64,000 nt of DNA, taken from assembly GCA_024239035.1 (NCBI GenBank), contig JANBVK010000001.1:235010-299009 (forward strand). The letters run 5' to 3'. Of this stretch, positions 2,575-53,268 are shown piece after piece (within the stretch, counting starts at the first letter, position 1; each line of letters begins with the position of its first letter). The notes below the pieces were generated by a model. It ran no database searches. It saw only the letters and a program-made list of their open reading frames with translations, and was not told where the DNA came from. The DNA is from Patescibacteria group bacterium (GTDB lineage Bacteria; Patescibacteriota; Minisyncoccia; UBA6257; GWB1-50-10). The translations under genes were made by a program, and so were the position numbers.

Positions 2575-4100
<1,526 letters not shown>

Positions 4101-20601: not shown

Positions 20602-20653
20602 CTCCCCCTACAGAACGCATTCAGAACTCTGGATTGGGTTGGTATTAGGAAAG
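20602..20653 (+). repeat. Dispersed repeat family R1 (CTCCCCCTACAGAACGCATTCAGAACTCTGGATTGGGTTGGTATTAGGAAAG), copy 1
   Basis: Four copies of a near-identical sequence in this window, all in the same orientation and all intergenic. Confidence 0.85.
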
Positions 20654-21195: not shown

Positions 21196-21266
21196 TTTAA
21201 ATATACTAGCATTGCCTTCTGTAGAAAGAAAATGTTTTACCTACTCGTCTTAATCTCTTGTGCTAG

Positions 21267-21323
21267 CTCCCCCTACAGAACGCATTCAGCCTGCCCGACC
21301 AGGGAACCTTGGATTAGAATAAG
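21267..21323 (+). repeat. Repeat family R1, copy 2 (with 17-nt internal insertion), 55 nt upstream of the ABC transporter gene
   Basis: CTCCCCCTACAGAACGCATTCAG[cctgcccgaccagggaa]CCTTGGATTAGAATAAG. Confidence 0.8.
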
Positions 21324-23169: not shown

Positions 23170-23186
23170 ACTTTTATATCCTCGGT

Positions 23187-23305
23187 CAGGACTCAAACCG
23201 ATCGGCTCGAAACCTGCTTAAACGAATCAATTATCCATTGTCCTCACTTTGTCCACATATGTGGACAAAGTGAGGACACAGCAGATCTGCTTGAAAATCA
23301 AATCA
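23187..23305. repeat. Composite repeat family R2/R3, copy A: a roughly 50-nt block (CAGGACTCAAACCGATCGGCTCGAAACCTGCTTAAACGAATCAAT), a 38-bp perfect palindrome GTCCTCACTTTGTCCACATATGTGGACAAAGTGAGGAC (23240-23277), and a conserved tail ACAGCAGATCTGCTTGAAAA
   Basis: Seen directly. The palindrome core TTGTCCACA / TGTGGACAA is a 1-mismatch DnaA-box-like 9-mer in inverted orientation. Confidence 0.85.
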
Positions 23306-23341
23306 AGTTAAGAAAAGACGCACAAGAAGAGTTAAATCTAT

Positions 23342-25365: not shown

Positions 25366-25426
25366 TCTTTCGATGAATTGAAAAAAATGAAAGCCCGTGC
25401 CCACACCAGACCTTGGCTCCCCCTAC

Positions 25427-25468
25427 AGAACGCGTTCAGAACTCTGGATTGGGCTGTTATTAGGAAAG
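25427..25468 (+). repeat. Repeat family R1, copy 3
   Basis: CTCCCCCTACAGAACGCGTTCAGAACTCTGGATTGGGCTGTTATTAGGAAAG. Confidence 0.85.
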
Positions 25469-26122: not shown

Positions 26123-26199
26123 TGCAACCTCCTCTCAAGTGTTCTGTTAAAATATCTAGTAGAGATTATATCAGATATTTAGAATACGTCAAGTAATAG

Positions 26200-26250
26200 C
26201 TCCCCCTACAGGACGCGTTCAGAACTCTTGATTGGATTGGGATTAGGAGA
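26200..26250 (+). repeat. Repeat family R1, copy 4
   Basis: CTCCCCCTACAGGACGCGTTCAGAACTCTTGATTGGATTGGGATTAGGAGAG. Confidence 0.85.
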
Positions 26251-26335
26251 GATTTAGAAACTATAGTTGGTTTTATAAAAATGGAAAAGGCGGGTGCAGT
26301 TTGTCACTGACCCGCCCTCTCTGCTGTATTCGCTA

Positions 26336-26815: not shown

Positions 26816-26872
26816 AGAGCAAAAACAAGATACTACACTACATGGTAGTCCGTCAATACCTAGCTCCGCGAG

Positions 26873-27320
26873 CAGGACTCAAACCGATCGGCCTGAAACC
26901 TACTTAAACAAATCAATCACTGCTGATTCTAACTGTCCTCACTTTGTCCACATACGTGGATAAAGTGAGGACACGGTAGATCTGCCTGAAAACCGAAAAA
27001 TTAATTTAAAACTGTAACCGGGTGGCCGGTAAAGAGCGGAGTATTTACGACGTCGCCCAAATTGCACGGCTCGCCCACGTAGAGAGCAAATTCCACTTCC
27101 CTGCCCAATAAATCACTAGACACTGCAGTGCCGCTCAAAGAAGAAAAGTGCGTTTCGTACTGCCAGCTGCTTATTTTTTCTTAGCGAGGAACAAGCTTAG
27201 AAAAACAAGTATCCCGAGCGAGTCTCAAACGAATGTGAGAGACGACGAGGGACTACCAAATATTGATTCGGAAAGAAACTAACGAAAAATGAGCCAGTCG
27301 ATTGGCTTATTTTTCGGATT
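26873..27320. repeat. Composite repeat family R2/R3, copy B: the 50-nt block, a palindrome at 26935-26972 (GTCCTCACTTTGTCCACATACGTGGATAAAGTGAGGAC), a CCGGTAAAGAGCGGAGTATTTAC block, a roughly 225-nt insert, and a terminator-like block AACGAAAAATGAGCCAGTCGATTGGCTTATTTTTCGGATT (27279-27320)
   Basis: Shares the 50-nt block and tail with copy A, and shares the CCGGTAAA.AGCGGAG block and the terminator block with copy C. Confidence 0.85.
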
Positions 27321-27598
27321 AAATAATACACAACAATTTCGAATCCCAGCCCGGCAGCCAGTTAGTGGGAGGTTCAAGTGACCTGATTGGTTCACAAATC
27401 TCACTAATTTCTATTATTCATAAATTTGTTAAAATAAGACTACGAATACAGTTGAGAAAAAAGTATGGTCAGAATATTTTCAACAAATTCTTGATGTTAA
27501 AAGGACTTTTGAACTTAGACTGAACAATTTTGAAATTAATGAAGGCGGTAAAGCCGCAACGTGTTAAAGAGGTGGAAGATGACTCAACCTAATTCGTT

Positions 27599-29320
27599 AT
27601 GCCTAATGATAAACAAGAAACAACTAGCGAAATTAAACTAATCGGCACGATGCCGACTTATAGGGACTTATTTCCTGAACAAGGAGCTGTTGGAGAAAAA
27701 TTTGTAATAAGGATTTTACAAAACCTCTATCAGAGAGATTGTTTATTGATTTTGTATCAACTTTCTAAACATTATTACAAATATTGCCAGAAAGGTTGCG
27801 GAGGGAAAAATAGTCTAGATATTTACAAACAGAGATGTTTTGAACTGGTAAGTTCAGAAATACAGGAAAAAATAAAAAAGAAAAACCCAATGCCACCTAG
27901 GGACTATATGATCATTTTTCCTGAGCCATCAATAGTCCATTTAGTTAAGCTTTGTTTGCGATATTGCGACAACGCAGACTACACAAAAAATGGCGTAGAG
28001 TTCTCACAAGAAACTCTACACAATATCGGCAAGAGTTTACTTGTAGTTAATTCTATCTTCGCAGATTGGCAGTTAAAAAATACCAGCGAAAAAACTCGAA
28101 TGACCCTTGATTTATTGGCTAATCTTACAAAACAGCAAATTGTAGATAAAAACTTTGAGATGTCTCAGAAGATGTATCAGAACTACTTTATCTTTAAAAA
28201 ACTATTAAATAACTACAATGCCAAGTTTGATCTTCAAAGTCTTTTTCAGGAAAAGTTTGGTGTCGAGGTGCAGGAGTATTTCGCTTTCCTAGCGGTGCTT
28301 CAGGGGCAATACGATATTAAAGATATACTAGATGAAGATTGGGCGTTGCCATTCTTAGACTTCGACATTGCGTTAAAGAATTTAAAATCAAAATATAAAC
28401 ATAAACTTTTAGATAGCCTCCTAATTAATAATATGAACTATAAAAATCTTAGCATGAGCTTTTTTGATGTGACCGATGTCATAAAAAGGCCACTTGTGAA
28501 GTTACCAGATAATAAAATAATACCCCTGAGTTTACGTCGACTTTTTAACCGGCTCTCAACCTCTGTTTATTTTGATTTACTAGACTCTCTAACCAATAAA
28601 AAAGAAAAAGATAAATTTTCTCAGTATTTTGGATATGCTGTGGAAGACTATTTTCGAGATTTAATTCGTTCTATAGATAGTAGCGTCTTGTTTCCGCGCT
28701 ACGGTAAAGCCGATGAACAAGAAGCAAATGATGCAGTTTTGGTTCAAAAGGATGCAGTTATATTTTTTGAATGCAAAAAACGCCCATTTCATAACCTCGA
28801 ATTTCTTCAAAAGGGCAACGGCGACTATTACCTGGATAGACTTAGAGAGTCTTACTTCAAACCACTAGATCAGATTTGTGAAAGAATTAAAGATTTTAGA
28901 GATGGTAAGTTCTCTGTCGAAGGTGTTGGGAACGATGCACTTGTATATCCGGTGGTTGTATCTCCTGCAACTCCACCACTTTTTTCTGGAGCTTGGGACA
29001 AGTTTAATTTGAATCAATATGTTTTGCCTAAATATTACAATGAGGATAAGAGCATAGCCCCACCAGAGTTTATTGATTTTTCAGAGTTAGAACATATAGA
29101 GGAAGTCCTTAAAAGACAGCAAGATATTGATATTGTCGACCTGATAAAAAGGAAACGGGCTGATACAACGTATCACAGCGCTAATTTTTTGGTGTTTCTC
29201 CATAAAAACCATATGGTCTTTCACAATAAGAGATTATTGGAAAAGTATTTGAGCGAAGTTAAAAGCTTCAAAGAACTTCTTTTTAAAGATAGTGAGAAAA
29301 GGTCGATAGGTGGAAAGTGA
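27599..29320 (+). CDS. Orphan hypothetical protein (573 aa), very AT-rich, bracketed by composite repeats; possible defence or abortive-infection-type protein
   Basis: Long ORF with Lys/Asn/Tyr-rich composition, clearly different from its neighbours. A candidate PD-(D/E)xK-like motif (VQKDAVIFFECKK) is a weak indication only. Confidence 0.6.
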   Translation: MPNDKQETTSEIKLIGTMPTYRDLFPEQGAVGEKFVIRILQNLYQRDCLLILYQLSKHYYKYCQKGCGGKNSLDIYKQRCFELVSSEIQEKIKKKNPMPPRDYMIIFPEPSIVHLVKLCLRYCDNADYTKNGVEFSQETLHNIGKSLLVVNSIFADWQLKNTSEKTRMTLDLLANLTKQQIVDKNFEMSQKMYQNYFIFKKLLNNYNAKFDLQSLFQEKFGVEVQEYFAFLAVLQGQYDIKDILDEDWALPFLDFDIALKNLKSKYKHKLLDSLLINNMNYKNLSMSFFDVTDVIKRPLVKLPDNKIIPLSLRRLFNRLSTSVYFDLLDSLTNKKEKDKFSQYFGYAVEDYFRDLIRSIDSSVLFPRYGKADEQEANDAVLVQKDAVIFFECKKRPFHNLEFLQKGNGDYYLDRLRESYFKPLDQICERIKDFRDGKFSVEGVGNDALVYPVVVSPATPPLFSGAWDKFNLNQYVLPKYYNEDKSIAPPEFIDFSELEHIEEVLKRQQDIDIVDLIKRKRADTTYHSANFLVFLHKNHMVFHNKRLLEKYLSEVKSFKELLFKDSEKRSIGGK

Positions 29321-29451
29321 TAAGGGGGTGTGTCTCATTTGTCTCATTTACCATATAACACCCCTGACCCGAGTGGGTTGATTCTCGTGCTATAATAGCT
29401 TCAAAGAACCCCCTAAACACCCCCATTAAAACAAATCACCTTTATTTTCAT

Positions 29452-29628
29452 GTCCTCAATATGTCCACGTATGTGGATAAATTGAGGACAAATGAAATCC
29501 GCTCTGATAATCAATGTCTCCTACTCAACAAATTATCAATTGGAAACGGTAACTGGGTAGCCGGTAAAAAGCGGAGAATTTACTGCAAACGAAAAATGAG
29601 CCAGTCAATTGGCTCATTTTTCGGATTG
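29452..29628. repeat. Composite repeat family R2/R3, copy C: palindrome GTCCTCAATATGTCCACGTATGTGGATAAATTGAGGAC (29452-29489), a CCGGTAAAAAGCGGAGAATTTAC block, and a terminator-like AACGAAAAATGAGCCAGTCAATTGGCTCATTTTTCGGATT (29586-29625)
   Basis: Direct comparison with copy B; the terminator hairpin TGAGCCagtcaattGGCTCA has an A-run and a T-run on either side, so it could terminate in both directions. Confidence 0.85.
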
Positions 29629-29964
29629 TGGTTTTATACGATAAACCACTCCTCTACCAATTTTGCCCACTTGTTCCACGCCACCTTCTTTTTCGAGCTC
29701 CTCCATATAGCGGGCAACAGACCTGCGAGAGATACCTAAAACCTCACGAATATCGGAATTGGTAAGTTCTGGCCGCTCTTTAAGGAGTTCAAGGATTCTC
29801 ACTTTGTTCTTATTCTTCCTAACAGTTCTGTCTAGTGCGATATTACAAATTCCCGCAAACTCTTTCGCGGTGGTTGTGTCATGCTTTTTTGCCTCACTAC
29901 AAGACAACCAGAACAGGATAAACAAAAGGGCAACAAAGAGAAAAAGAAAGATTAATAAATTCAT
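29614..29964 (-). CDS. Membrane-anchored winged-helix (HTH) transcriptional regulator
   Basis: N-terminal TM (LLIFLFLFVALLFILFWL), then a C-terminal HTH (LTNSDIREVLGISRRSVARYMEELEKEG). Confidence 0.6.
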   Translation of the reverse strand: MNLLIFLFLFVALLFILFWLSCSEAKKHDTTTAKEFAGICNIALDRTVRKNKNKVRILELLKERPELTNSDIREVLGISRRSVARYMEELEKEGGVEQVGKIGRGVVYRIKPQSEK

Positions 29965-30014
29965 GCTTTAAATTTATACCTGCTTTAGCTATCGTGTCAG
30001 ATCCTGCCGAGGTT

Positions 30015-30512
30015 TTAAATTTTCTTAAAAAGTTCGGTATCCATTATTCTCCACCACATCATTTCCTCGCTTACTTTGTATCTCTGAGCCAGTGATTTCA
30101 CATCTTTAATTCCTTCTGCAAAATCTCTTTTCAAAAAATCAATTGGCACTAAAAGCTCTGCCGCAAATTTGTTTACGGCTGTTTCTTCGGGATTCTTAGA
30201 ATTGAAATCATCACCATTATTTCGCAAATCGGCATGTCCCAATATCAGATGCCCTAATTCGTGTGCAATTGTAAATCGTTGACGATGTGGGTGATGATCT
30301 CGATTGTATGCAATTACATGTTTTTTGTTTTTGCTAATATGCGCGCCGGAAACCTTATTGATAAAAGAATGCGACACGAGTTCAATTATAATCTTTCGCT
30401 TCCTGCTAATATGTTGAATAACTTCTTTAATACCAATAGGAGGGTTATTTATTTGTAGTTCACTGATAATTCGACGCGCTAATTTTTGTGGGAATTGTAT
30501 TTTACTTTTCAT
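30015..30512 (-). CDS. ImmA/IrrE-family (COG2856, DUF955) zinc metallopeptidase
   Basis: HEXXH motif in context: FTIAHELGHLILGH. 165 aa; the start overlaps the methyltransferase stop by 4 nt. Confidence 0.75.
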   Translation of the reverse strand: MKSKIQFPQKLARRIISELQINNPPIGIKEVIQHISRKRKIIIELVSHSFINKVSGAHISKNKKHVIAYNRDHHPHRQRFTIAHELGHLILGHADLRNNGDDFNSKNPEETAVNKFAAELLVPIDFLKRDFAEGIKDVKSLAQRYKVSEEMMWWRIMDTELFKKI

Positions 30513-31864
30513 AATTTCTTTTTAAGTATATCGATTGAATATTGAAGTTTTCGCTCTTCTTCTACTGTCAACCCCTGTTCAGACCTAAAAGCGACCTTAA
30601 CTACTGGATCATTTCTTTTAACAACGGTTCCTCCGTAACTTAATGGGAACCTTCTATCTATCAATTTTGGCTCAATCGCTTGATTGAGCACTTGTTTTAT
30701 TTCAAAAACATTTGCACGAGAACTTTTCTTTGTCGAATCAATTATAATAACAAACTCCGTATTGTGTCCTCTATCCTCTACGTTGACCCCAGAATATCTT
30801 TGTGAACTTACTCTATATCGTTTATATTTCTTAAGCACTATGTCGAGGTATCCTTTATCAGCAAACATATCTAACAGCGTATTGAAATTTACCAAACCAT
30901 CCGTGGAGTAACTTATTAAAATAAATCTGGCTTTTAATTTACTGATTAATTCTCTAAATGCTTCTGTGGCCGTATCTCGATAGCAATAGAAGCTCTTTCT
31001 CTCGGTTCGCCAATCCAATCTGATAGCCGATTTGTTGACCGTTTTGCCATTGACCAAAATCTCTTTGTTAATTTTTGGTTTATCCCAGAGGTCAATAGTG
31101 CTCAAAAGATGGTAATTTGAACCATATTGATGTTGATTATATGGAGGGTCTATATAAGCAATATCGCACTTAATATTAGAAGCCAACTCATTTGCGTCCT
31201 CTTTATATACGTTATTTTCTTTACCGTTATTGTGAAAAAGTGGCGGCTCAATCGTTAATCGACTTCTGATTCTATAGAGAGCAGTGCTCGTTGATCCACC
31301 CCACCCCCGATGATAGGCCTTGAAAACACCTGAGGTATTACTGCAGTAAGCTCCTTGAAAAATTAGTGGCGCTAACAAAACTCGCATCTCACTTTCATTG
31401 ATAGTTCCATCCTCTCTCCACTCTCGTATCTTTTCTCTGATCGCATCAATTCGTCGACCGTTCTCTTGCGTATAGAACATACGTTCTTTATCAGGGTTAG
31501 GATTTTCATCATTTGCTGGGCAATAGTACGTAGCAATATAGCCTTTGATTGGTTTGAGATTATTCAAAATACCAAACGCCTTCTGCATTCCGCCTAATTT
31601 TCTAAATGTTGGCGGGCGGTTTCGTTTAATATAGGTATGGTTGATCGTATAAGAATACGGCTCCCAATCATTACTAATGACTTGGTAGCCAAAAACTTTG
31701 GCTAATCTTGATATCACACCGCTACCTGCGAATACATCAAAAAACACGCCGGAGTTCACGCCAGTTTTGCGAACCGCTTGTTCAATAAGAGGCACTAACC
31801 GCCTTTTGTTCCCTATATAGGGTATGAGCTGATTATATGTAAAACTATCTTGATTGCGCGGCAT
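30509..31864 (-). CDS. N6-adenine DNA methyltransferase (Dam-like D12 class) of a type II restriction-modification system
   Basis: IPYIGNKRRL (Dam KWAGGK-equivalent region), FAGSGVIS (FxGxG SAM-binding motif) and catalytic DPPY. Confidence 0.8.
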   Translation of the reverse strand: MPRNQDSFTYNQLIPYIGNKRRLVPLIEQAVRKTGVNSGVFFDVFAGSGVISRLAKVFGYQVISNDWEPYSYTINHTYIKRNRPPTFRKLGGMQKAFGILNNLKPIKGYIATYYCPANDENPNPDKERMFYTQENGRRIDAIREKIREWREDGTINESEMRVLLAPLIFQGAYCSNTSGVFKAYHRGWGGSTSTALYRIRSRLTIEPPLFHNNGKENNVYKEDANELASNIKCDIAYIDPPYNQHQYGSNYHLLSTIDLWDKPKINKEILVNGKTVNKSAIRLDWRTERKSFYCYRDTATEAFRELISKLKARFILISYSTDGLVNFNTLLDMFADKGYLDIVLKKYKRYRVSSQRYSGVNVEDRGHNTEFVIIIDSTKKSSRANVFEIKQVLNQAIEPKLIDRRFPLSYGGTVVKRNDPVVKVAFRSEQGLTVEEERKLQYSIDILKKKL

Positions 31865-31865
31865 A

Positions 31866-33383
31866 TTATCTTTGAGTTTGGGTATCCCTTATGAGGTTAT
31901 GCCAAAGTTTCTCTACATTAATGATCGGAATTTTGATCTTTTTCTTAGTAGTATAGATGTCATTCGGATAATTGCTGATCCATGCAGCTACAAATCTTGA
32001 TCGGGTAATATCGTCTTTCGGAGACTCGTGCGCACTAAACTCGAATGCATCATATTCTGCCTCAATTTCAAATAGTCGACCTTTATAACTATCAACATTT
32101 TGAATGATATCATGACGGATCGAAAATAAGTCCATTAAATCCAAAGATTTAAGTGATTTATTAAACCTTTCAGCAGGAACGAGGTCATCTAAATAAATAC
32201 AAAGGAGATCTGGATAGGCCGTATCCACCCGCACCACGAGAATTATCTTTTCTTCTTTGTCTTGTTTAACCTTAAGAGCTTTAGCTAAGCTTAGATTTTC
32301 TATATAGGAAATAACATTTACTTCTTGGTTTGCCTCTTTATACTTTTTAATAAGTTTAATTTTGTCCTCGAACGTACTTGTAATTTGGGCATGTAGCTGT
32401 TCTCTATATTTTTTGAGACGAGCGTTTTGAAATGGCGCGGTGTATGGAGCTTTACTAATGTCCTCAATTTTATTTAACTTGTGATATTCCGCGAGCGGGA
32501 GTATTGGTTGGCCTGTTTTGAAATATAACCATTCCTCACCGTTTTTAGGCTTAATAAAAAAGTAAAAGATATTAGCGGCGTCAGGTTCTAATTTTTTAAA
32601 CACTAAATTATCGAGGACTCGAAACGGGATAGTGTAAAAATCTTTATATTCCAAATCATCTGTTAATATTTTGAAAACAAAATTCGGGCAGTTTTGATGG
32701 TAGATAAAACTTTTTGGTATCGAGTAATAAATCCTCGGATGAGATTTAAGTATCTCCTCATAAGGTATCGTCGGATACGGAATATAAATATGTTCGCGCT
32801 TGTTGGTTTCAAAACAAGCCTTCCGTTGCTCAAAAAAATATTGAGACACTTTCCTGCCGCTGTTTGATATCTCTTGGATCACTGCACGCTTCGGCCACTT
32901 TTTATCATAATCTCGCAATTTAAATTCTTGAGTTTTGCGATCCAAGAAAACCTGTAACGCTTTCTCTACTTCTTGTTTGAATGCTTCAAACTTTTTATTG
33001 CTGACTTTCGTGATGTTTGTAAATTGAGGTTCAACATCACCGTCCGATCGAACCCTAAAAAGCAGGATACCATCTTTTATTGGTCTAAATAAAATCTCAG
33101 GTAACCTGTAGTAGTAATCATCAGAACCTCTAACAAGACCTATCGCATTGAGAACCATTGAAATGTTGCCGGGGAGCCCCCGTAAAAATGAGCGAATCTT
33201 TTTTTCTGGTACTGACCTACCAATACCCATCATCATTCCGATATAAGCAGGGTTGTCGCGAAAAAACTTTAGAATGTCATTAGTTGAAAATCGATTTGCT
33301 TTCAGCTTGCCATGTTGGACAAAAATGAGAAACTTTAATGGGACGCGGTCTTTTTTAATAACCATGGTTTGGGGATTATCCAC
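31866..33383 (-). CDS. Putative cognate restriction endonuclease (505 aa hypothetical), 1 nt upstream of the methyltransferase gene
   Basis: Position and tight coupling to the methyltransferase; no conserved motif expected or seen. Confidence 0.45.
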   Translation of the reverse strand: MDNPQTMVIKKDRVPLKFLIFVQHGKLKANRFSTNDILKFFRDNPAYIGMMMGIGRSVPEKKIRSFLRGLPGNISMVLNAIGLVRGSDDYYYRLPEILFRPIKDGILLFRVRSDGDVEPQFTNITKVSNKKFEAFKQEVEKALQVFLDRKTQEFKLRDYDKKWPKRAVIQEISNSGRKVSQYFFEQRKACFETNKREHIYIPYPTIPYEEILKSHPRIYYSIPKSFIYHQNCPNFVFKILTDDLEYKDFYTIPFRVLDNLVFKKLEPDAANIFYFFIKPKNGEEWLYFKTGQPILPLAEYHKLNKIEDISKAPYTAPFQNARLKKYREQLHAQITSTFEDKIKLIKKYKEANQEVNVISYIENLSLAKALKVKQDKEEKIILVVRVDTAYPDLLCIYLDDLVPAERFNKSLKSLDLMDLFSIRHDIIQNVDSYKGRLFEIEAEYDAFEFSAHESPKDDITRSRFVAAWISNYPNDIYTTKKKIKIPIINVEKLWHNLIRDTQTQR

Positions 33384-33708: not shown

Positions 33709-33797
33709 CCCCGTACAATTACACCGCTCGCGCTATCCGAGCGCAAAAGACACGAAGTGGCGGTGTAATTATACGGGATCAAGACAAATCTTCCATC

Positions 33798-33892
33798 GTC
33801 TTCACTTTGTCCACATATGTGGATAAACTGAAGACATGTTCCGTAAATTGAGTTGTCCTCACTTTATCCACATATGTGGGGCTTTTGAAGAC
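33798..33892. repeat. Two tandem palindromes of family R3 (33798-33835 GTCTTCACTTTGTCCACATATGTGGATAAACTGAAGAC; 33855-33892 GTCCTCACTTTATCCACATATGTGGGGCTTTTGAAGAC) in the divergent promoter region of the PaaX-like regulator gene
   Basis: Each contains perfect TTATCCACA / TGTGGATAA DnaA-box 9-mers. Confidence 0.85.
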
Positions 33893-33924
33893 AGATAATA
33901 TTGTTATAATTCGGTAACACAAAA

Positions 33925-34440
33925 ATGGCTAAAACTTCTCGCGACACGTGGAAACATATAAGGGAGTGGAGCGGCTTCTTCAAAGACGAAAAAGCCGTTA
34001 CCGAAGCATCGGTGGACAAATTCCTGACGCATCACAAAAAAAGAAAACACTTGAAACAAAGTTTGGACCGCCTTATCAAACGCGGATTTATAAAAGAGCG
34101 AGGCGGCAAACTCACTCCAACAGATAACGGCATCCGCTTTTTCCGAAAGCATACCGGCGCGCGGCAAAACCCAAAGCGGTGGGACGGCAAATGGCGCTTA
34201 ATATCTTTTGACGTGCCGGGTGGCTACAGCATAAAACGCGACCAGCTGCGAGCGCTCCTTAAAGAGTTTAATTTCTATCCCCTGCAGAAAAGTGTGTGGG
34301 TGTGCCCAAGTTATGTCGCAGATGAGTTTTGGAAACTGGTGACCGGATATGATCTCGATAAATATTGCAAAGTAATGCTCGTAGATATTGTAGAAGGAGA
34401 CAAAGAATTAAAAAATCATTTCAGGCGATTTATTAGTTAA
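33925..34440 (+). CDS. PaaX-family-like transcriptional regulator (winged-helix plus PaaX C-terminal-like domain)
   Basis: WDGKWRLISFDVPGGYSIKRDQLRALLKEFNFYPLQKSVWVCP matches the PaaX_C pattern (W.G.W.L..FD.P......R..LR..L...GF..LQ.SVW). Confidence 0.6.
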   Translation: MAKTSRDTWKHIREWSGFFKDEKAVTEASVDKFLTHHKKRKHLKQSLDRLIKRGFIKERGGKLTPTDNGIRFFRKHTGARQNPKRWDGKWRLISFDVPGGYSIKRDQLRALLKEFNFYPLQKSVWVCPSYVADEFWKLVTGYDLDKYCKVMLVDIVEGDKELKNHFRRFIS

Positions 34441-35693
34441 CGTTTCTTTCTCTTTCTTAAAAACGCCGGGATGTCCCACTCTGATTTATGAGAGTCTTTT
34501 TTCTTTGCGCTTTTCTTACCTCTCGTATCCTCCTCTCTTTCTTCCGCCTCCTTCACACTTCCTTCGTCTTTTATCTCCGTCACGCCTTCTTCCTTTAGTT
34601 CATCTTTTAGGAAAAGAGACGGCATACCCAAACGATTGCTGCTCATCAAGCCGTTGAACCCGGTGGCAACCACCGTTACTTTAATGCTCTTGTCTTTGAG
34701 ACTGCGGTCATAGTAAGCGCCGAAAATTACCTTAGCATTGGCGTCCAGGTTGGCTGAGATGGTTTTAGCTACCTCGTTTATTTCCGCCATTTTCAAGTCT
34801 CTCCCGCCGGCGACGCTAAAGAGTACCCGTTTTGCACCATCAGTGGAAATCTCAAGAAGAGGGGAATTAATTGCGGCTTTCGTCGCCTTCAGGCTCCGGT
34901 CGGCGCCCGAGGCAATACCGATGCCAATCAGCGTCGGTCCAGAATCTTTGATAATTGCCTTAATATCAGAAAAATCAACGTTTATAATGCCTGGTGCGTT
35001 TATAAGGTCAGCAACAGCACTAACCGCCTGCTGGAGAACCTCATCAACAAAACTGAAGGCGCGGGCGACAGAAGTGTCTTTGCTAATCAAACCAAAAATC
35101 CGGTCATTGGGAATTACAACCAGGGCATCAACTTTATCCTTCAAATTACTAAGTCCTTCTTGGGCAATCCTCGATCGATCCATTCCTTCGAATGAAAACG
35201 GCTTGGTAACGATGGCAACTGTCAAAATATTTTTTTCTTTTGCCGTCTCGGCAATAACAGGGAGAGCTCCAGTGCCGGTGCCGCCGCCAAAACCAGCGGT
35301 GAGAAAAACAATATCCGTCCCTTCCAACGCTTCTATAATTTCCGAACGGTTTTCTTCAGCCGCTTGCTTGCCGACATCCGGATTCATGCCGGCACCAAGT
35401 CCACGAGTAAGAGCTTTACCAATGTAAATTTTACGGTGAGCCAGCGTATGATTTAGGTCCTGAGTGTCTGTGTTTATAGCAAGGAATTGAACGCCTCGCA
35501 TCCGGTTCCCTTCCATCATTCTGGTTACGGCATTGCCGCCGCCGCCGCCAACTCCGACAACCTTAATAGACGTAACACCCGATTTTGCTTTACTCGGAGA
35601 TCTCAACTTTAATACCCTCCTTGCCTTTCTTGCTGGCCTTGATCTGGGTCTGGATCTTTTTAGTTTGGGTCTTCTTCTTATTCTTCTTGCCAT
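34437..35693 (-). CDS. ftsZ: Cell division GTPase FtsZ, with Arg-rich N-terminal extension if the ATG at 35693 is used
   Basis: IKVVGVGGGGGNAV tubulin signature, GTP-binding NTDAQ-equivalent, C-terminal conserved peptide DIPAFLRKRKK. Confidence 0.9.
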   Translation of the reverse strand: MARRIRRRPKLKRSRPRSRPARKARRVLKLRSPSKAKSGVTSIKVVGVGGGGGNAVTRMMEGNRMRGVQFLAINTDTQDLNHTLAHRKIYIGKALTRGLGAGMNPDVGKQAAEENRSEIIEALEGTDIVFLTAGFGGGTGTGALPVIAETAKEKNILTVAIVTKPFSFEGMDRSRIAQEGLSNLKDKVDALVVIPNDRIFGLISKDTSVARAFSFVDEVLQQAVSAVADLINAPGIINVDFSDIKAIIKDSGPTLIGIGIASGADRSLKATKAAINSPLLEISTDGAKRVLFSVAGGRDLKMAEINEVAKTISANLDANAKVIFGAYYDRSLKDKSIKVTVVATGFNGLMSSNRLGMPSLFLKDELKEEGVTEIKDEGSVKEAEEREEDTRGKKSAKKKDSHKSEWDIPAFLRKRKKR

Positions 35694-35704
35694 AATTATT
35701 GTTC

Positions 35705-36922
35705 CTACGGCACGAGGTTCCTAAAAAACTTTCTAACCCCGCCGATACTGCCTCCCGATTTTCTATTCTCTGAGTCTGCCCATAAAACCAATCCCACCGC
35801 CGTAGAAAATTCAGGATCATCCAGAAGTTCTTTGTGGGCGGAATTCAAAATCTCAAAACTACCAAGCTCCGGATAACCAACGTGGGCCGGCAACCGCAAC
35901 TCCCGCCTCACTAATTCAACCATACCGGCCAGCTTAACTCCTCCCCCAGTTACAACAACACCGGCTGGAAGCTGGGTGCTTCGCCCCAAGGCTTTCAGCT
36001 CATTATTAACAAGATCCAATATTTCCGCAACTCTGATTTCAATAATTTCAGCAAGGAAGCGCCTTGAAATGTCACCTTTGGCGGTGGGGTCAAAATCAAC
36101 AAGTTCAATTGTTTCTCTCCTTGAAATTTCCCTGGCAAGGGCGAATCCGTGGGTTAGCTTCAGTTTTTCGGCAGCATCAATTGAAGTTTTAAAACCAACG
36201 GCAATGTCATTGGTGATATACCCCACGCCAACCGGCAAACTCTTTACGTGCGTAACTTTATTTTCTTCAAAAATGGCCATCGAAGTGGCTCCAAAACCGA
36301 AGTCAATCATTAAAACCCCCAAATCTTTCTGCTTTTTCGTCAGTGTCGCCCGGGCGGCGGCAAGCGGGCTAAAAATTAAACCACCAACCCGGATCCCCAC
36401 CCGTTCCAAACTTTTTACAAGAAGATTAACTTGGGGTGAAAAAGCTTCAACAATAAGAGTAGATACTTCCAGTCGATTACCGGTCATCCCTAAGGGGTCG
36501 TGGATATCGCCCACGTCGTCAATAAAATACTCACGTGCGATGTTATGAAGAATCAAATGATTCGGCGAAAGCTTAACTGCCCGCGACCCTTGAATAACTT
36601 TTTCAATGTCGTCTTGCTGGATTTCTTGGTCAGGCCGGGAGACCACGACCACCCCTCTGGAATTACGAGGTTTAATATTCTCGCCGTTTACATTTACAAA
36701 AACGTTATGAACAGTCTTTTTAGAAATTTTCTGGAGATCAACAACTAAATCTCTCAAAATCCTAGTTGCGTCCTCCACGTCCACTAAAAGCCCTTTACGC
36801 AGGCCCGATGAGGGGTATTTAAGAGCAGCGACAACCGAGAGCTTGCCTTTTTTCTTCTCTTCGGCCACGACGCACTTTATCTGAGACGAGCCGATATCTA
36901 AACCAGTGATTATATTAGCCAT
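35705..36922 (-). CDS. ftsA: Cell division protein FtsA (actin-like ATPase)
   Basis: N-terminal GLDIGSSQIKCVVAE, phosphate-2 and adenosine motifs; 405 aa; directly upstream of ftsZ. Confidence 0.9.
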   Translation of the reverse strand: MANIITGLDIGSSQIKCVVAEEKKKGKLSVVAALKYPSSGLRKGLLVDVEDATRILRDLVVDLQKISKKTVHNVFVNVNGENIKPRNSRGVVVVSRPDQEIQQDDIEKVIQGSRAVKLSPNHLILHNIAREYFIDDVGDIHDPLGMTGNRLEVSTLIVEAFSPQVNLLVKSLERVGIRVGGLIFSPLAAARATLTKKQKDLGVLMIDFGFGATSMAIFEENKVTHVKSLPVGVGYITNDIAVGFKTSIDAAEKLKLTHGFALAREISRRETIELVDFDPTAKGDISRRFLAEIIEIRVAEILDLVNNELKALGRSTQLPAGVVVTGGGVKLAGMVELVRRELRLPAHVGYPELGSFEILNSAHKELLDDPEFSTAVGLVLWADSENRKSGGSIGGVRKFFRNLVP

Positions 36923-37328
36923 ATGAGAGTATTTTCTCTTCTAATCGTTCCATCTCTATCCTATCACTCTTTTTCGTGTGTGTGTATCCCAAGAGGTGGA
37001 GCAAGCCATGAATCGTGAGACGGCCTAAATTTTCTCCTCGACGGTGAATATGGCCCGGTGCCAGGTAAATCTCACCAAGGTAAGAAAGACGGCTCTCCGG
37101 ATGCGGCCATTTTTCTGATCGTTCTTTAAAACTCAAAACGTCAGTAATTTTATCCCTTTTGCGAAACTCTTTATTCAACAACTGCATCCTCTGGTCGCTA
37201 ATAAGGTATATTTCCAGTTGAACACCACCTTTCTTAAGGTAAGTTAGAGCAAGCTTAGCTGCTTCTTTAGCCTCTTTCTCCAACCCTCTAAATTTCTTAC
37301 TCAAACTAAAAACGGATACTCTGTTCAT
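36915..37328 (-). CDS. ybeY: rRNA maturation endoribonuclease YbeY
   Basis: HGLLHLLGYTH (H-x-x-x-H-x-x-x-x-x-H zinc motif), 137 aa. Confidence 0.85.
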   Translation of the reverse strand: MNRVSVFSLSKKFRGLEKEAKEAAKLALTYLKKGGVQLEIYLISDQRMQLLNKEFRKRDKITDVLSFKERSEKWPHPESRLSYLGEIYLAPGHIHRRGENLGRLTIHGLLHLLGYTHTKKSDRIEMERLEEKILSYG

Positions 37329-37347
37329 GCTGAACCGATTTGTTCTA

Positions 37348-37824
37348 CTACTCGTGAACTCCCTCTAATTTCTTTTTTATTAATCCGGCAACCATTTGTG
37401 CGTCGGCCTTGCCTTTAAGCTGTTTCATTGCATCCCCCATCACTTTACCAAAATCAGCCGGACCTCCCGGTTTCACTCGCACCATTGTCTCGTCAAGAAT
37501 TTTTACTATCTCCTCCTCATTCATCTGGGAAGGCAGATACTCCTCAATAATGTTAAGTTCTTTCTCCTCCTTCTCGGCTAATTCGCCTCTCTTTCCTTTC
37601 TTATACATTTCAATCGCCTCTTTCCTCTTTTTCGCTTCTTTTCTTAAAACCTCTAAAACCTCATCATCTCCCAGGACAACTTCTTTCCCTTCACTCTTTC
37701 CTTTCTTCTCAATTTCTAAGTTATGAGTTGCCGAGAGGACCAAGCGTAGAGTTCCGCTTCGCAACCCATCCTTTTCCTTCAATGCTTGAACTAAGTCACT
37801 CTTTATTTTCTCCTCCAATGTCAT
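37348..37824 (-). CDS. GatB/YqeY-domain protein
   Basis: Helical 158-aa protein with the YqeY-like pattern (LKEKD...RLVLSA...). Confidence 0.6.
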   Translation of the reverse strand: MTLEEKIKSDLVQALKEKDGLRSGTLRLVLSATHNLEIEKKGKSEGKEVVLGDDEVLEVLRKEAKKRKEAIEMYKKGKRGELAEKEEKELNIIEEYLPSQMNEEEIVKILDETMVRVKPGGPADFGKVMGDAMKQLKGKADAQMVAGLIKKKLEGVHE

Positions 37825-38036
37825 GAATGGCCGTATTTTCTCTGCCGAGCAACTTGTTTCTTTTTTTGGATGCGATAAAGAGCAGAAGCGCGCCGTTTGT
37901 TGCGATTCACATTTCTGGAATGAAAACGCCTTTTCTTTGCTTCTTTAAGAATTCCGCTTTGCCTAATCCTCTTATTAAAGCGGTATAGAAACGAGCCTAG
38001 ACTTTCTCCTTCCTTTTTTTTTATTTCGATGGGCAT
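37821..38036 (-). CDS. rpsU: Ribosomal protein S21
   Basis: MPIEIKKKEGESLGSFLYRFNKRIRQSGILKEAKKRRFH fits the S21 family pattern. Confidence 0.85.
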   Translation of the reverse strand: MPIEIKKKEGESLGSFLYRFNKRIRQSGILKEAKKRRFHSRNVNRNKRRASALYRIQKKKQVARQRKYGHS

Positions 38037-38048
38037 ATACGTTAAAAA

Positions 38049-38459
38049 TTAGCTCGCTTTCAAAATTTTTTCTTTTATCACCTGTAATGACTCCTTCGGC
38101 GGGTTGTTGACCACTCCGTGAATGGAGGTACCGCCGTCGCTATTATAACGAGGAATAACAAGAACATGCAAGTGGTCGATCGCCTGACCAACTTTATGGT
38201 TAATGCCTATCGTAAAGCCGTCTGGTTTAATCGTTTTATCCAAAAGGTCGGTAACTTTCTTCACTGCTCGGAATAAAAGATTAACCTCATCATCCGAAAG
38301 TTCAAGAATGTTCTCGGCATGAGTTCTTGGTATAACTACTGTTTGACCCGGCGCGAGCGGATTCACATCTAATAAACCAAGTGCCGACTCATCTTCATAA
38401 ATAATGTTATCGGCAGGAACTTCCTTATTAGCTATCTTACAAAATAGACAATCACTCAT
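38049..38459 (-). CDS. HIT-family (histidine triad) nucleotide hydrolase
   Basis: CLFCKI N-terminus and histidine triad HLHVLVIP. Confidence 0.85.
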   Translation of the reverse strand: MSDCLFCKIANKEVPADNIIYEDESALGLLDVNPLAPGQTVVIPRTHAENILELSDDEVNLLFRAVKKVTDLLDKTIKPDGFTIGINHKVGQAIDHLHVLVIPRYNSDGGTSIHGVVNNPPKESLQVIKEKILKAS

Positions 38460-39790
38460 TTAAGTCTCTTCTTCGTCTCTTCAACCAGCTTTTCAAGAAT
38501 AATATTTTCCTGCACCCCTGATTTCATATCCCTAACAATAGCCGAACCTTCAAAAACCTCTCGCTGACCCACAATAATAGCGAGCCGCGCCTTAAACTTA
38601 TCCGCCATCTTAAGCTGATTTCCTAAAGATTTCTTGCCGAGTGATTCGAGGGTTTGAATTCCATTTGAACGCAGCTCGTTAATAAACTTCAAGCTTGCCT
38701 TCTTAGCTTCATCTCCTATAGCGATAAAAAACACTTTAGGTTTCGACTTCAGAGGAGGAGTTAAATCTTCGGCCTGCATAGCCTCAATAATCCTCTCAAG
38801 TCCCGACGAGCTGCCCACCGCCGGCATGGGTCTTCCTCCTAGAAGTTCCGAGAGATAATCATAGCGGCCGCCGCCTGCAAGTGCTGCCTCGGGTAGAGAA
38901 GAAGAAAAAACTTCAAACACCGTCTTATTATAGTAATCTAAGCCGCGGACTAAATACGGGTCGGGAACATAGGCAATATTATTATCCTCCACTAATTCCA
39001 AAACTGATCTGAAGTGATTATTGCAGCTACTACAAAGATAATCAAGGATAATCGGCGCATTTTCTCTTAACTTCTGACATTCCGGCTGCTTGCAGTCCAG
39101 AAGCCGGAGAATGTTCTGGTCATATCGCCGCACGCAGTCGCGGCAAAGCTTGGCTTTCCTGTAACGGTAATACTCCTTGAGTTTATCCCGATAGGTTGGA
39201 CGGCAAATCCGACAACCGATAGTATTAATTTTTAAAGTTGGTTCTTTAAACTTCAACGCTTTCAAAAAACTAAGAACCACTAAGATAATCTGAACATCGT
39301 AGACAGCGTCACTGTCTCCTATAATCTCAAATCCCCACTGGTGATGCTCACGATAGCGAGATTTCTGAGGTCTCTCGTATCTAAACATCGGACCGTAATA
39401 AAACACCTTTAGGGGTGATGCAAAATAACCCAGGTGGTGCTCAAGATAACTCCTCATAACGGGTGCTGTTCCTTCGGGGCGGAGGGCTACTTTCTCACCG
39501 CCTTTAGTTTTAAAAACGTACATTTCTTTCTCTACGATATCCGTTGCCGCCCCGACGCCCGCTTCAAAAAGACCAGCCTGTTCCACAATCGGCGTCTCAA
39601 TAAAACGGAAATCGTGAAGCTCACTAACCGTCCAACCGACATCAAAAATCGCCTTCCACCAACTCTGGTTTTTCGGCAAGATATCTGCCATCCCCCTGAC
39701 CGACTGAAATAAGTGATTTTTTTTTCTTTTCTTTACAGTCTTCTTACTCTCCTGTTTGACTGTTTTTGATTTAGGTATATTCATCCGCAT
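38456..39790 (-). CDS. hisS: Histidyl-tRNA synthetase, with Lys-rich N-terminal leader if the first ATG is used
   Basis: Class II aaRS motifs: RGMADILP, FRYERPQKSRYREHHQWGFEIIG, GGGRYD; C-terminal anticodon-binding domain. Confidence 0.9.
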   Translation of the reverse strand: MRMNIPKSKTVKQESKKTVKKRKKNHLFQSVRGMADILPKNQSWWKAIFDVGWTVSELHDFRFIETPIVEQAGLFEAGVGAATDIVEKEMYVFKTKGGEKVALRPEGTAPVMRSYLEHHLGYFASPLKVFYYGPMFRYERPQKSRYREHHQWGFEIIGDSDAVYDVQIILVVLSFLKALKFKEPTLKINTIGCRICRPTYRDKLKEYYRYRKAKLCRDCVRRYDQNILRLLDCKQPECQKLRENAPIILDYLCSSCNNHFRSVLELVEDNNIAYVPDPYLVRGLDYYNKTVFEVFSSSLPEAALAGGGRYDYLSELLGGRPMPAVGSSSGLERIIEAMQAEDLTPPLKSKPKVFFIAIGDEAKKASLKFINELRSNGIQTLESLGKKSLGNQLKMADKFKARLAIIVGQREVFEGSAIVRDMKSGVQENIILEKLVEETKKRLK

Positions 39791-39796
39791 TATAAG

Positions 39797-40336
39797 CTAG
39801 TAACTTGGCGCACTAAACGCCATCACTTCATTAATCGGCCACAGACGGAAACGAGCAAAACCGACAATGTCGTCCTCTTCTAGTGGCCCCCAGCTCCTTG
39901 AATCAAAACTAAAATTACGGTTGTCCCCCATTACAAAGTACTCTGTAGAACTAAGCGTTTCATCAAAACTACCTCGCGTTCCTGTCCCCCAAAGATATGA
40001 CTCGGAAAGAATTTTTTCTTCCCCGTCTTCGTAAACCAGAACCTCACCATCTTTCACTACCACCCGCTCACCCGGTAGACCAATTATCCTTTTAATATAA
40101 AAAGCTCTCTTATCAGCCGGATATCTGAAAACAATCACCTCGCCGCGCTTTGGCTCACGGAAACGATACGTAAGTTCATCAACTAGTAAGTAATTATTAT
40201 CATAAAAATTAGGCTCCATACTGGAACCACTCACTAGAAAAGGTTGGGCTATAAAACTCCTAACCAAAAAAACTATCACTACCGCGATAACAAGGGTTTC
40301 AACTATTTCGAAGAAAGACCAAAGAAGTTTACGCAT
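39797..40336 (-). CDS. lepB: Signal peptidase I
   Basis: GSSMEPNF (box B Ser), catalytic-Lys box YIKRIIGLPGE, and GDNRNFSFDSRSWG box E. Confidence 0.85.
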   Translation of the reverse strand: MRKLLWSFFEIVETLVIAVVIVFLVRSFIAQPFLVSGSSMEPNFYDNNYLLVDELTYRFREPKRGEVIVFRYPADKRAFYIKRIIGLPGERVVVKDGEVLVYEDGEEKILSESYLWGTGTRGSFDETLSSTEYFVMGDNRNFSFDSRSWGPLEEDDIVGFARFRLWPINEVMAFSAPSY

Positions 40337-40381
40337 ATAATATGGCAGACAATAAAAAACTATGCGATAATTCTACAAAAT

Positions 40382-40930
40382 ATGCAACAAAAATTCAACC
40401 TTAAGCAGATTAAATTAGTTATCGGTCTCGGTAACCCCGGCAAAAAATATGAGGGCACGTACCATAACATCGGCTTTTTGTTCGTAGATTATCTAACAAA
40501 TCCGCCGGCTGGCGGACCAATTTCTAAGCCGCTCAAATCGAGCGTACACATGAACGAGTCAGGAAAATTTGTGCGAGCATCGATGAAAAAACGTGGGGTA
40601 AAACCCAAGGAATTGCTGATTGTCCACGACGATTCCGATATAATACTTGGGTCTTACAGATTCTCCTATCGTCGCGGTTCAGCGGGACACAAAGGGGTGG
40701 AATCAATTGTCCGGGTTCTCAAAACGAAAAATTTTTCCCGTCTCCGCATCGGCATCCGACCCAAAAAAGCGGGTCTGCCCGCCGGCTTGCCCGCCAAAGC
40801 TTTAGCATCGGCAGGAGCCCGGAGGGCGAAGGCGGGAGAGTTGGTGTTAAAAAAAATAACCCCAAGCCATAGAAAAACATTAGAAGAGGTATTTAAGAAA
40901 ATAGAGAAAGACTGCTTCTCCTTTACCTAA
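40382..40930 (+). CDS. pth: Peptidyl-tRNA hydrolase (start at internal ATG 40382; the ORF track starts at 40244, inside lepB)
   Basis: KLVIGLGNPGKKYEGTYHNIGF N-terminal signature; HDDSDI; RIGI. Confidence 0.8.
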   Translation: MQQKFNLKQIKLVIGLGNPGKKYEGTYHNIGFLFVDYLTNPPAGGPISKPLKSSVHMNESGKFVRASMKKRGVKPKELLIVHDDSDIILGSYRFSYRRGSAGHKGVESIVRVLKTKNFSRLRIGIRPKKAGLPAGLPAKALASAGARRAKAGELVLKKITPSHRKTLEEVFKKIEKDCFSFT

Positions 40931-42416: not shown

Positions 42417-42426
42417 AGTTTACAAA

Positions 42427-42897
42427 TTAAGTTACCGGTTCCTCACTAAGCGACTGAAGTTGGACATAACCCGTGGTCTGGTTAACCACCAAGATTGCAA
42501 CTAGTTTCCTCTGCCTACTGCCGGCTGTTGCTGTGGAACTTATTGTATAAATATAGATATTTAAAGCGTTATCAACGGTCCTCATTGCGGAAACCGAGGT
42601 ATTATCATCACCTACAGTTAGATTATAGTTTTGAGGAGTAGAGCCGAATTCTTTGTCCCTTGTAATTTTAATCATTGCATCGCGAATGCCTGAATGGGCT
42701 GCCGCCGAGGCTCTCAAAGACAATCGCTCTCCTAAACCGGCTGTGCCCAAAAAATAAGTTACGAAAGAACCGGCAATGGTAATCTCAATGATAATGCCGC
42801 TTATAAGAAGAATAAACGGAAGAGCAATCTGCCCTCGCGCGGAGTTATATCCCATGTCACTATAATACCAAAATGTACATCCTTGTGTCATGCACAC
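42427..42897 (-). CDS. Membrane-anchored protein in the pilus operon (PilO-like or non-canonical minor pilin)
   Basis: N-terminal TM (IALPFILLISGIIIEITIAGSF) with Glu in the helix; directly downstream of pilMN. Confidence 0.4.
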   Translation of the reverse strand: MCMTQGCTFWYYSDMGYNSARGQIALPFILLISGIIIEITIAGSFVTYFLGTAGLGERLSLRASAAAHSGIRDAMIKITRDKEFGSTPQNYNLTVGDDNTSVSAMRTVDNALNIYIYTISSTATAGSRQRKLVAILVVNQTTGYVQLQSLSEEPVT

Positions 42898-42972
42898 TTA
42901 ACCAAACTAAAAACTCCCCATATATGGGGAGTTTTTAGTTGTTGGAAAACTGTTTGTGGCTCATTCAGATTA

Positions 42973-53264: not shown

Positions 53265-53268
53265 CACA

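Follow-up and report, generated by a model that had tools for sequence, protein, structure and literature searches.

We analysed a 64,000-nucleotide (nt) stretch of DNA from a Patescibacteria group bacterium (contig JANBVK010000001.1, positions 235,010 to 299,009; hereafter referred to as the window), focusing on a gene for a protein of 573 amino acids (aa) and on the repeats that flank it. A first-pass annotation, made from the letters alone, had described this gene as an AT-rich orphan, bracketed by copies of a composite repeat with built-in bidirectional terminators, and had proposed that it is a mobile cassette with a defence or abortive-infection role. The open reading frame (ORF) is intact and lies where that annotation had placed it, and its product is 100% identical to the deposited Patescibacteria protein KJI72_01360. 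The low GC content of the gene is real (0.347, against 0.441 for the 64-kb window) but not special to it: the neighbouring genes for a ROK protein (0.352), an M78 peptidase (0.351) and a 505-aa protein (0.364) are equally AT-rich. The three repeat modules described for both sides of the gene were found at their places. The gene and its flanks contain the following features:

26865–26917: left-flank module GGACTCAAACCGATCGG, common only to a copy at 23179–23231 (87%) downstream of the ATP-binding cassette (ABC) transporter gene
26934–26973: upstream 40-nt palindrome TGTCCTCACTTTGTCCACATACGTGGATAAAGTGAGGACA; RNA fold −31.2 kcal/mol, z −8.6
27008–27048, + strand: upstream block AAACTGTAACCGGGTGGCCGGTAAAGAGCGGAGTATTTAC, with two short potential hairpins; it contains the CCGGTAAA block
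27049–27280, + strand: 232-nt segment present only in the upstream unit; no ORF over 45 aa
27281–27320: upstream A-tract/hairpin/T-tract unit; fold −19.4 kcal/mol, z −6.75; 95% identical to the downstream copy
27321–27598, + strand: unique, AT-rich 5′ region that presumably holds the promoter of the 573-aa gene; no likeness to the upstream regions of homologues
27599–29320, + strand: the 573-aa gene; DNA homology to other loci confined to 27614–29297
29451–29490: downstream 40-nt palindrome; fold −25.4 kcal/mol, z −7.4
29544–29583, + strand: downstream block AAACGGTAACTGGGTAGCCGGTAAAAAGCGGAGAATTTAC, which contains the CCGGTAAA block
29588–29627: downstream bidirectional terminator hairpin; folds −27.1 (+) and −21.9 (−) kcal/mol

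The flanking units are direct, not inverted, repeats; 26899–27048 and 29422–29583 match at 69% over 168 nt. They differ in the gap between block and hairpin, which is 232 nt in the upstream unit (225 nt had been given before) and 4 nt in the downstream unit. Compared with shuffled sequence, every hairpin folds much better (z −6.2 to −9.3). The terminator hairpin, AACGAAAAATGAGCCAGTC(G/A)ATTGGCT(T/C)ATTTTTCGGATT, has the shape of an intrinsic bidirectional terminator, with a GC-containing stem, a T-run on one side and an A-run on the other (z about −6.5). A terminator scan gave 29590–29623 (15 pairs) as the best terminator-like site of the region, and the upstream hairpin was terminator-like on the − strand (27307–27292). 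The downstream hairpin lies between the convergent 573-aa gene and a winged helix-turn-helix (wHTH) gene, whose stop codon it overlaps; the upstream unit would shield the 573-aa gene from transcription arriving from the left. Within the presumed promoter region, TTGAGA-17-TATTTT at 27452–27480 is a candidate promoter by consensus match only.

The intergenic region upstream of the gene is a hybrid: on the left it resembles the region downstream of the ABC transporter gene (23179–23311 and 26865–27009 match at 79% over 145 nt), on the right the region downstream of the 573-aa gene. This composition fits recombination between palindrome-bearing regions. We also noted that the block, the 232-nt segment and the terminator (27008–27320, + strand) together form a possible non-coding transcript of ~310 nt; the fold of 27000–27325 has a z of −3.4 on the + strand and −0.95 on the − strand, and the 232-nt segment could be part of such a transcript or a gene remnant. 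The module GGACTCAAACCGATCGG has a slight look of a tRNA T-arm on the reverse strand; a tRNA-derived att site was rejected, as ARAGORN detected no tRNA gene anywhere in the window and an E-value scan with Rfam, run over 20–34.5 kb, returned only chance miRNA-like matches on the palindromes.

The predicted structure of the 573-aa protein is that of a two-domain nuclease. The AlphaFold2 model was confident (predicted local distance difference test (pLDDT) 87.4, predicted template modelling score (pTM) 0.86) and consists of an all-helical N-terminal domain (approximately residues 20–335, on a scale of ~335 aa) and a C-terminal alpha/beta core (approximately 335–500). The order of elements in the core is helix 334–359, strands 379–383 and 386–392, helices 399–434 and strand 448–455, giving the alpha-beta-beta-beta-alpha-beta fold of the PD-(D/E)xK nucleases. 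D378 is at the start of strand 379–383, E391 is within strand 386–392 and K393 follows it directly, a placement that in the model has the canonical PD-(D/E)xK geometry. The bipartite motif, an acidic residue on beta-2 and (D/E)xK on beta-3, is therefore present. In an alignment of 22 members, down to 44% identity, D378 and E391-C-K393-K394 were invariant; the invariant residues of the N-terminal domain include D47, C48, E109, N151, N175, Q179, D183 and Q190. Foldseek matches were almost all PD-(D/E)xK nucleases, each weak except the anti-phage nuclease Upx, which was the best match in the PDB (9wuf; E 1.1e-4, 509 aligned columns, probability 1.0), ahead of the R.BspD6I small subunit, Cdn1, Can2, EndoMS and SfsA. 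The D...ExK motif, which had been called weak, is by the alignment, the model and the structural matches a real and invariant PD-(D/E)xK site.

The description of the gene as an orphan does not hold. In a word-indexed search, 48 relatives with 45–84% identity turned up, mostly from groundwater and sediment metagenomes and from bacteria of the Candidate Phyla Radiation (CPR), Campbellbacteria among them. A full hidden Markov model scan of 50%-identity clusters matched 939 cluster representatives at E 1e-3 or below, 206 of them at E 1e-10 or below, and most members have 550–620 aa. Ten distant members had no Pfam match and none of them an informative name. The statement that the protein has no recognisable family was correct in that it has no Pfam match of its own; it has to be qualified because the catalytic region of 6 of 22 relatives weakly matches Pfam NERD (PF08378; best E 1.9e-5), which one relative carries as a precomputed annotation. 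NERD shares the D...ExK(K) motif with the 573-aa protein but lacks its 335-aa helical N-domain, and the 573-aa protein stays below the Pfam curated threshold for NERD. By sequence comparison, it is related to NERD at the superfamily level and is not a scored member; its own family is unannotated and widespread in CPR bacteria and beyond.

We then compared the surroundings of the relatives in more than 15 non-redundant contexts, numbered with L. Members of the close subclade (61% identity or more) invariably lie next to a gene for a regulator that combines a helix-turn-helix (HTH) domain with a protease, and to a methyltransferase gene, with restriction enzymes of different families. There the nuclease gene is transcribed divergently, across a short intergenic region, from a gene that joins LexA_DNA_bind to Peptidase_S24; the latter gene is either free-standing or fused to that of the methyltransferase. 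The contexts include the following, where R-M stands for restriction-modification:

L001–L003: HinfI, N6_N4 methyltransferase and LexA/S24
L011–L013 and L026: TaqI and a LexA-S24-methyltransferase fusion
L014/L015: MvaI/BcnI and a LexA-S24-methyltransferase fusion
L016–L018: the HinfI set and a DUF4209/EMARD_N protein
L006: ParB-methyltransferase, a LexA-like protein and a PDDEXK_1 protein
L004, L020 and L036 (distant members): large serine recombinase immediately downstream, convergent
L004 (distant member): edge of a prophage with terminase
L020 and L032 (distant members): near type I R-M
L004 and L021 (distant members): near type IIG R-M
L036 (distant member): KAP NTPase nearby
L019, L021 and L035 (distant members): DUF4238 and DUF4209 proteins nearby
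L016 and L039: IS3-family transposases nearby
L004 and L037 (distant members): just after dnaG-rpoD

The similarity of the window DNA to nine homologue loci ends at the ORF (27614–29297). At L001, perfect inverted repeats of 250 nt (6696–6945 and 12028–12277) flank a 5-kb block with HinfI, the methyltransferase, the LexA-like gene and the nuclease homologue, and in a second assembly from the same groundwater site (L002) this block runs the other way round, which means either that the segment can invert or that its assembly is ambiguous. By the varied contexts, the L001 block that may invert and the homology restricted to the ORF, the gene is accessory, horizontally exchanged and resident in defence or mobile neighbourhoods. 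These contexts show mobility and the type of neighbourhood, not what the protein does.

Three further observations were made at these loci. Single polypeptides joining LexA_DNA_bind, Peptidase_S24 and a DNA methyltransferase occur on CPR contigs at L011 (5156–6679), L014 (7742–9607) and L016 (11408–12985), next to type II restriction enzymes; the methyltransferase part is N6_N4, but C5 in L016. Such fusions suggest a self-cleaving, damage-sensitive control of R-M. In three independent contexts, L016 (3323–5137), L021 (5502–7331) and L035 (1527–2528), a DUF4209/EMARD_N gene precedes the nuclease homologue in the same orientation, directly adjacent in two of them and separated by a 169-aa ORF in L021, with DUF4238 near in two; this pairing may be a multi-gene version of the nuclease system. 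A literature search on EMARD found nothing relevant. Immediately before the start codon of the nuclease homologue, three different contexts (L001 9988–10003, L026 7973–7988 and L014 at about 9680–9695) have the DnaA-box-like 9-mer within (A/T)AGTTATCCACAA(T/C)ATG, which is absent upstream of the 573-aa gene of the window.

The palindromes have a wider distribution than the borders of one gene. Five copies start at 23239, 26934, 29451, 33797 and 33854, with none elsewhere in the 64 kb; when the symmetric 15-nt core was scanned under relaxed conditions, these 5 sites yielded 10 matches counted by strand, where 0.14 would be expected. The copies span 10.7 kb of a low-GC island of ~13 kb and divide it into three segments, one of which is the 573-aa gene. 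Beyond the two copies listed above, the family comprises:

23239–23278: leftmost copy, a palindrome perfect over its 40 nt, on which the ABC-transporter and ROK genes converge from either side
33797–33893: two copies (33797–33836 and 33854–33893), directly upstream of the PaaX-like gene
33925–34440, + strand: gene for a PaaX-like regulator of 171 aa, with wHTH and Cas2-like PaaX_M domains (Pfam PF20803, E 1.6e-18)
L009, 431–1164: two palindromes upstream of a PaaX-like orthologue and one overlapping its 3′ end
L010, 5474–6085: one palindrome upstream and one downstream of a PaaX-like orthologue
L044/L045: sequence matching L009, with the same palindrome arrangement
L046/L047 (L046 9892–10591), Jorgensenbacteria: two palindromes upstream and one downstream of a 51% identical orthologue

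A pattern scan of 185,579 genomes (one per species) found the palindrome at four sites in two other metagenome-assembled genomes only, and in both of them (L009, L010) it adjoins the PaaX-like orthologue. That scan missed the divergent palindrome of Jorgensenbacteria, which was reached through the protein; this version is related but different (GCCTCAATTTTAACCAC followed by GTGGTTAAAATTGAGGC) and is without the central ATAT. The same type of palindrome flanks PaaX-like orthologues in three other CPR species, usually as two upstream copies and one 3′ copy, and varies along with the gene; a further copy lies elsewhere in each of two of these genomes (L007, L008). In two other species, inspection of 20 kb around the gene showed no copies besides the three flanking ones; the three additional copies of the window, strung along the adjoining island, are unusual.

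To assess the symmetry of the element, we aligned 12 ATAT-type copies from three species, leaving out the Jorgensenbacteria version. In this alignment 90% of cells pair, and 6 of the 18 pairs have changed on both sides; column 11/34, for instance, is A:U, C:G or G:C. The observed covariation score was reached by 0 of 500 shuffles, and slid controls gave at most 3 such pairs. The palindrome that had been described as DnaA-box-like is therefore the interior of a symmetric hairpin element, which is conserved and tied to the PaaX-like gene, and the PaaX-like protein is its likely cognate binder. This pairing, the least expected by-product of the analysis, appears from sequence comparison to be conserved across several CPR lineages; a literature search combining PaaX, Cas2-like and Patescibacteria found nothing relevant. 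Of the roughly 140 PaaX-like orthologues, many sit on contigs of ~1 kb, and the Logan assembly of the same sample ends inside the palindrome pair, which fits a repeat that breaks assemblies.

The island (20.5–34 kb) has a GC content of 0.33–0.43, against about 0.45 outside, and a GC skew near zero; most of the remaining window has a clearly negative skew. It is bounded by small unannotated ORFs on the left and by the PaaX-like gene, ftsZ and ftsA on the right, and contains a HAD-like gene, the ABC transporter, a ROK kinase, an MGH1-like glycosidase, small ORFs, the 573-aa gene and a methyltransferase operon:

29614–33383, − strand: genes for the 505-aa protein, a Dam-type N6-adenine methyltransferase, an M78 (ImmA/CapP-like) peptidase and a wHTH protein

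The methyltransferase is securely identified by its sequence as Dam-type (PADLOC MTase_II at E 1.5e-103; MethyltransfD12 as precomputed Pfam annotation). The M78 peptidase matches PADLOC capP at E 1.5e-27. The wHTH protein (29614–29964, − strand) has a hydrophobic N-terminal segment (MNLLIFLFLFVALLFILFWL) and may be a membrane-anchored DNA-binding protein, which would be unusual for a partner of the ImmR/CapH type. The 505-aa protein has 17 relatives, all hypothetical, and no Pfam or PADLOC match; its moderately confident model (pLDDT 79.8) gave only weak Foldseek hints of PvuII, NhoI, DpnI and winged-helix proteins, at E 0.4 or higher. The first-pass annotation had placed the 573-aa gene next to an R-M system; the Dam-type methyltransferase operon bears this out in part, and the weak structural hints do not confirm the 505-aa protein as its restriction enzyme. 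As a set, the wHTH protein, M78 peptidase, methyltransferase and 505-aa protein are analogous to the regulator and R-M sets of the relatives.

Several side observations concern the island. Its left half contains all four copies (20599–20653, 21264–21289, 25414–25468 and 26197–26251) of another intergenic repeat family, CTCCCCCTACAGAACGC(A/G)TTCAGAACTCTGGATTGG, which has no Rfam match. Two adjacent ORFs on the − strand at the left edge (19964–20206 and 20240–20491; 80 and 83 aa) are paralogous, with 65–72% DNA identity, and have no Pfam match. An integron was rejected as a description of the island, the ORFs scanned from 20.7 to 34.4 kb having no integrase domain and the segments holding 1–5 genes on both strands. 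A composite transposon or element bounded by insertion sequences was likewise rejected, the island being without a transposase and the flanking units being direct, not inverted, repeats.

Taken together, these results lead us to consider the 573-aa protein a horizontally acquired, single-protein defence-type nuclease, at a probability of roughly 0.55; defence is the best-supported function that we infer for it. The large helical N-domain would be the sensor or DNA-recognition module and the NERD-like PD-(D/E)xK domain (D378, E391-x-K393) the catalytic one, such that recognition of an invader cue or a DNA feature by the former licenses DNA cleavage by the latter. The nuclease may act against mobile elements on its own or backed by R-M; its gene moves horizontally, singly or within small blocks. 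The close subclade nearly always travels with an R-M module carrying a protease-coupled repressor, LexA-like HTH plus S24 in the relatives and ImmA/CapP-like M78 plus wHTH here. In the window, the gene is one of three segments, separated by the 40-nt palindromes of the PaaX-like gene, in an island built beside that gene. The unit of palindrome, block and bidirectional terminator would have been duplicated on both sides at or after insertion, acting mainly as transcriptional punctuation between convergent or divergent units and probably also as a protein-binding site. Insertion may have occurred, for example, by recombination at a palindrome; this step is possible, with the odds against it, because the island has no recombinase and no empty-site genome was found. 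Of the proposed mobile cassette, then, an accessory and horizontally mobile gene is well supported by the varied contexts, and the repeat as its private border is not, having five copies and its home at the PaaX-like gene.

A number of results weigh against a defence nuclease acquired in this way. The 573-aa protein had no match to any PADLOC defence-system model, the outcome of the database comparison that had been suggested for it, and no Pfam match of its own at E 0.01 or below; a sequence-profile search of the PDB gave 0 matches at E 10 or below. Ten distant relatives gave only two chance-level PADLOC matches, above E 0.002 and to unrelated models, and IMG/VR viral contigs contained no relative. 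The match to Upx is geometrically weak (template modelling (TM) score 0.29 on the query, root-mean-square deviation 11 Å). R-M systems are common in CPR genomes, and guilt by association is therefore soft evidence; the 505-aa neighbour is, moreover, unproven as a restriction enzyme. The 573-aa gene is convergent with the protease-repressor operon here and divergent in the relatives, and its promoter region and the promoter of the R-M operon share no operator of 12 nt or more. As for insertion at the repeat, no recombinase or transposase domain was found among the island ORFs scanned (20.7–34.4 kb), and an exact look-up of the PaaX-like protein returned only the source scaffold and one Logan contig, with no genome that lacks the cassette. 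In addition, a viral origin of the 573-aa gene was rejected: the BFVD viral structure library had no match to the model at E 0.001 or below, and IMG/VR no relative.

The repeats admit a reading without mobility, in which the palindromes are operators or roadblocks of the PaaX-like protein, the 573-aa gene and its neighbours belong to a local regulon, and the flanking unit is regulatory punctuation. The PaaX-like orthologues of three other species, with one or two palindromes upstream and one downstream, speak for it, as do the extra copies in two of those genomes (L007, L008), the symmetry kept by compensatory changes and the lack of a recombinase among the scanned island ORFs. However, two of the five window palindromes lie between convergent genes and not at promoters; the Jorgensenbacteria version, without the central ATAT and with its half-site spacing 4 nt off, fits a hairpin better than a fixed dimer footprint; and extra palindromes cluster only in the low-GC island, with none beyond the flanking copies in 20 kb of two other species. 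We regard this account as doubtful, if a serious contender. The reading of the palindromes as clusters of DnaA boxes, serving as an origin or in DnaA titration, takes the DnaA-box-like label of the first-pass annotation literally and has in its favour that the 9-mer TTATCCACA occurs 5 times in the window against 0.45 expected, three of these inside palindromes. The GC skew has no sign switch across the window, the leftmost two palindrome copies are without a perfect box, and what is conserved is a hairpin of 40 nt whose outer arms covary; the Jorgensenbacteria version reads TTAACCAC followed by GTGGTTAA. With no skew switch and just 3 perfect TTATCCACA boxes in palindromes, all inside the longer covarying hairpin, we rejected a DnaA-box cluster or oriC as highly improbable.

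The nuclease, too, could have another task. It might itself be a restriction endonuclease, either a modification-dependent type IV enzyme or the cognate type II partner of the adjacent methyltransferase. It combines a PD-(D/E)xK core with a large putative DNA-recognition domain, restriction and nicking enzymes are among its Foldseek matches, and a methyltransferase adjoins the gene in most contexts. The methyltransferase of the relatives, however, already has a partner (HinfI, TaqI or MvaI/BcnI), so that the protein is not the cognate type II enzyme, and the same protein (73–84% identity) adjoins methyltransferases of different specificity. Restriction as its role is thus unlikely, with the proviso that a type IV function overlaps with the defence function favoured above. 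Slightly less likely still is a role in DNA processing or repair, in which the enzyme would be induced by damage, limit the harm done by self-restriction and be co-regulated with R-M through the LexA- or ImmA-like switch. The gene of the close subclade is divergent from a LexA_DNA_bind + Peptidase_S24 gene and PD-(D/E)xK folds include repair nucleases such as EndoMS, yet distant members lack the LexA-like neighbour and are beside recombinases, type I or IIG R-M and KAP NTPases, and the patchy distribution, low GC content and gene-only homology fit selfish or defence cargo better.

The defence-type nuclease favoured here has its nearest analogue in Upx, a single-protein anti-phage nuclease with dual PD-(D/E)xK sites that senses phage terminase (PDB 9wuf; PMC13099982, PMC13601566). 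Upx is a monomer of ~1,200–1,270 aa with an N-terminal, a middle and a C-terminal domain, a core of D1161/E1176/K1178 and a second, atypical nuclease site (PMC13099982, PMC13601566). Like the 573-aa protein, it places a large non-catalytic region before a C-terminal PD-(D/E)xK core (D378/E391/K393 here) in one polypeptide, and both are found in defence-type neighbourhoods. Unlike Upx, with its two nuclease sites and three domains, the 573-aa protein has one recognisable catalytic site, and there is no sequence homology between them (0 matches in the PDB profile search, which included 9wuf, and no PADLOC match); we therefore regard Upx as an analogue and not as the family of the 573-aa protein.

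The regulators recall the protease-repressor switches of the CapH/CapP, ImmR/ImmA and LexA types, which attach to immune operons (bioRxiv 10.1101/2022.04.27.489752; 10.64898/2026.05.16.725639). As in CapH/CapP, the M78 peptidase of the window (PADLOC capP, see above) adjoins an HTH protein, and relatives of the 573-aa gene are beside LexA_DNA_bind + Peptidase_S24 genes, as in a LexA-type switch. The HTH partner in the window differs from the XRE-type CapH in being a putatively membrane-anchored winged helix, and the methyltransferase operon has its regulator genes at the 3′ end, where they converge with the 573-aa gene. The palindromes in turn resemble REP/RAYT and attC elements, as intergenic hairpins that flank one gene (the PaaX-like gene), have further copies elsewhere and show compensatory changes. 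The associated protein is, however, a wHTH plus Cas2-like PaaX-family regulator and not a Y1 transposase or tyrosine integrase, and the segments between the palindromes of the window are multi-gene and of mixed orientation. By analogy, the palindromes and the PaaX-like gene might be a lineage-wide CPR system in which the hairpin is a protein-recognised site for the capture or rearrangement of foreign DNA, a speculative idea that we consider improbable. Were it true, the three palindrome-bounded segments of the island, directly upstream of the PaaX-like gene, would be captured cassettes in an array, the nuclease gene among them.

Three features outside the island were recorded as well. A complete 16S rRNA gene (2576–4103, − strand) is present, but neither a 23S nor a 5S rRNA gene occurs in the 64 kb, and the rRNA genes appear to be unlinked; ARAGORN found no tRNA gene in the window. 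Several tandem paralogous ORFs of ~500 aa (56923–58425, 58429–59904 and 61234–62724) lie within 53157–62724 and have diverged internal repeats (families D1, D3 and D6). Between the window (34437–43000) and the Jorgensenbacteria locus (L046 10625–19178), the conserved block that runs from ftsZ and ftsA to pth and a gene of 497 aa differs in its orientation with respect to the PaaX-like gene, being inverted.

CPR bacteria, or Patescibacteria, have tiny genomes; to our knowledge, few defence systems beyond R-M have been recognised in them, and almost none of their accessory genes has been characterised experimentally. The palindrome and the PaaX-like gene would constitute a regulator/site pair, which would also explain the assembly breaks at this locus. 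The LexA/S24-methyltransferase fusions and the ImmA-like modules suggest a damage-sensitive control of restriction in CPR bacteria. The 573-aa protein is a candidate for a single-protein sensor-nuclease of defence islands and, if this is confirmed, its family would add a defence nuclease family that is missed by current defence finders.

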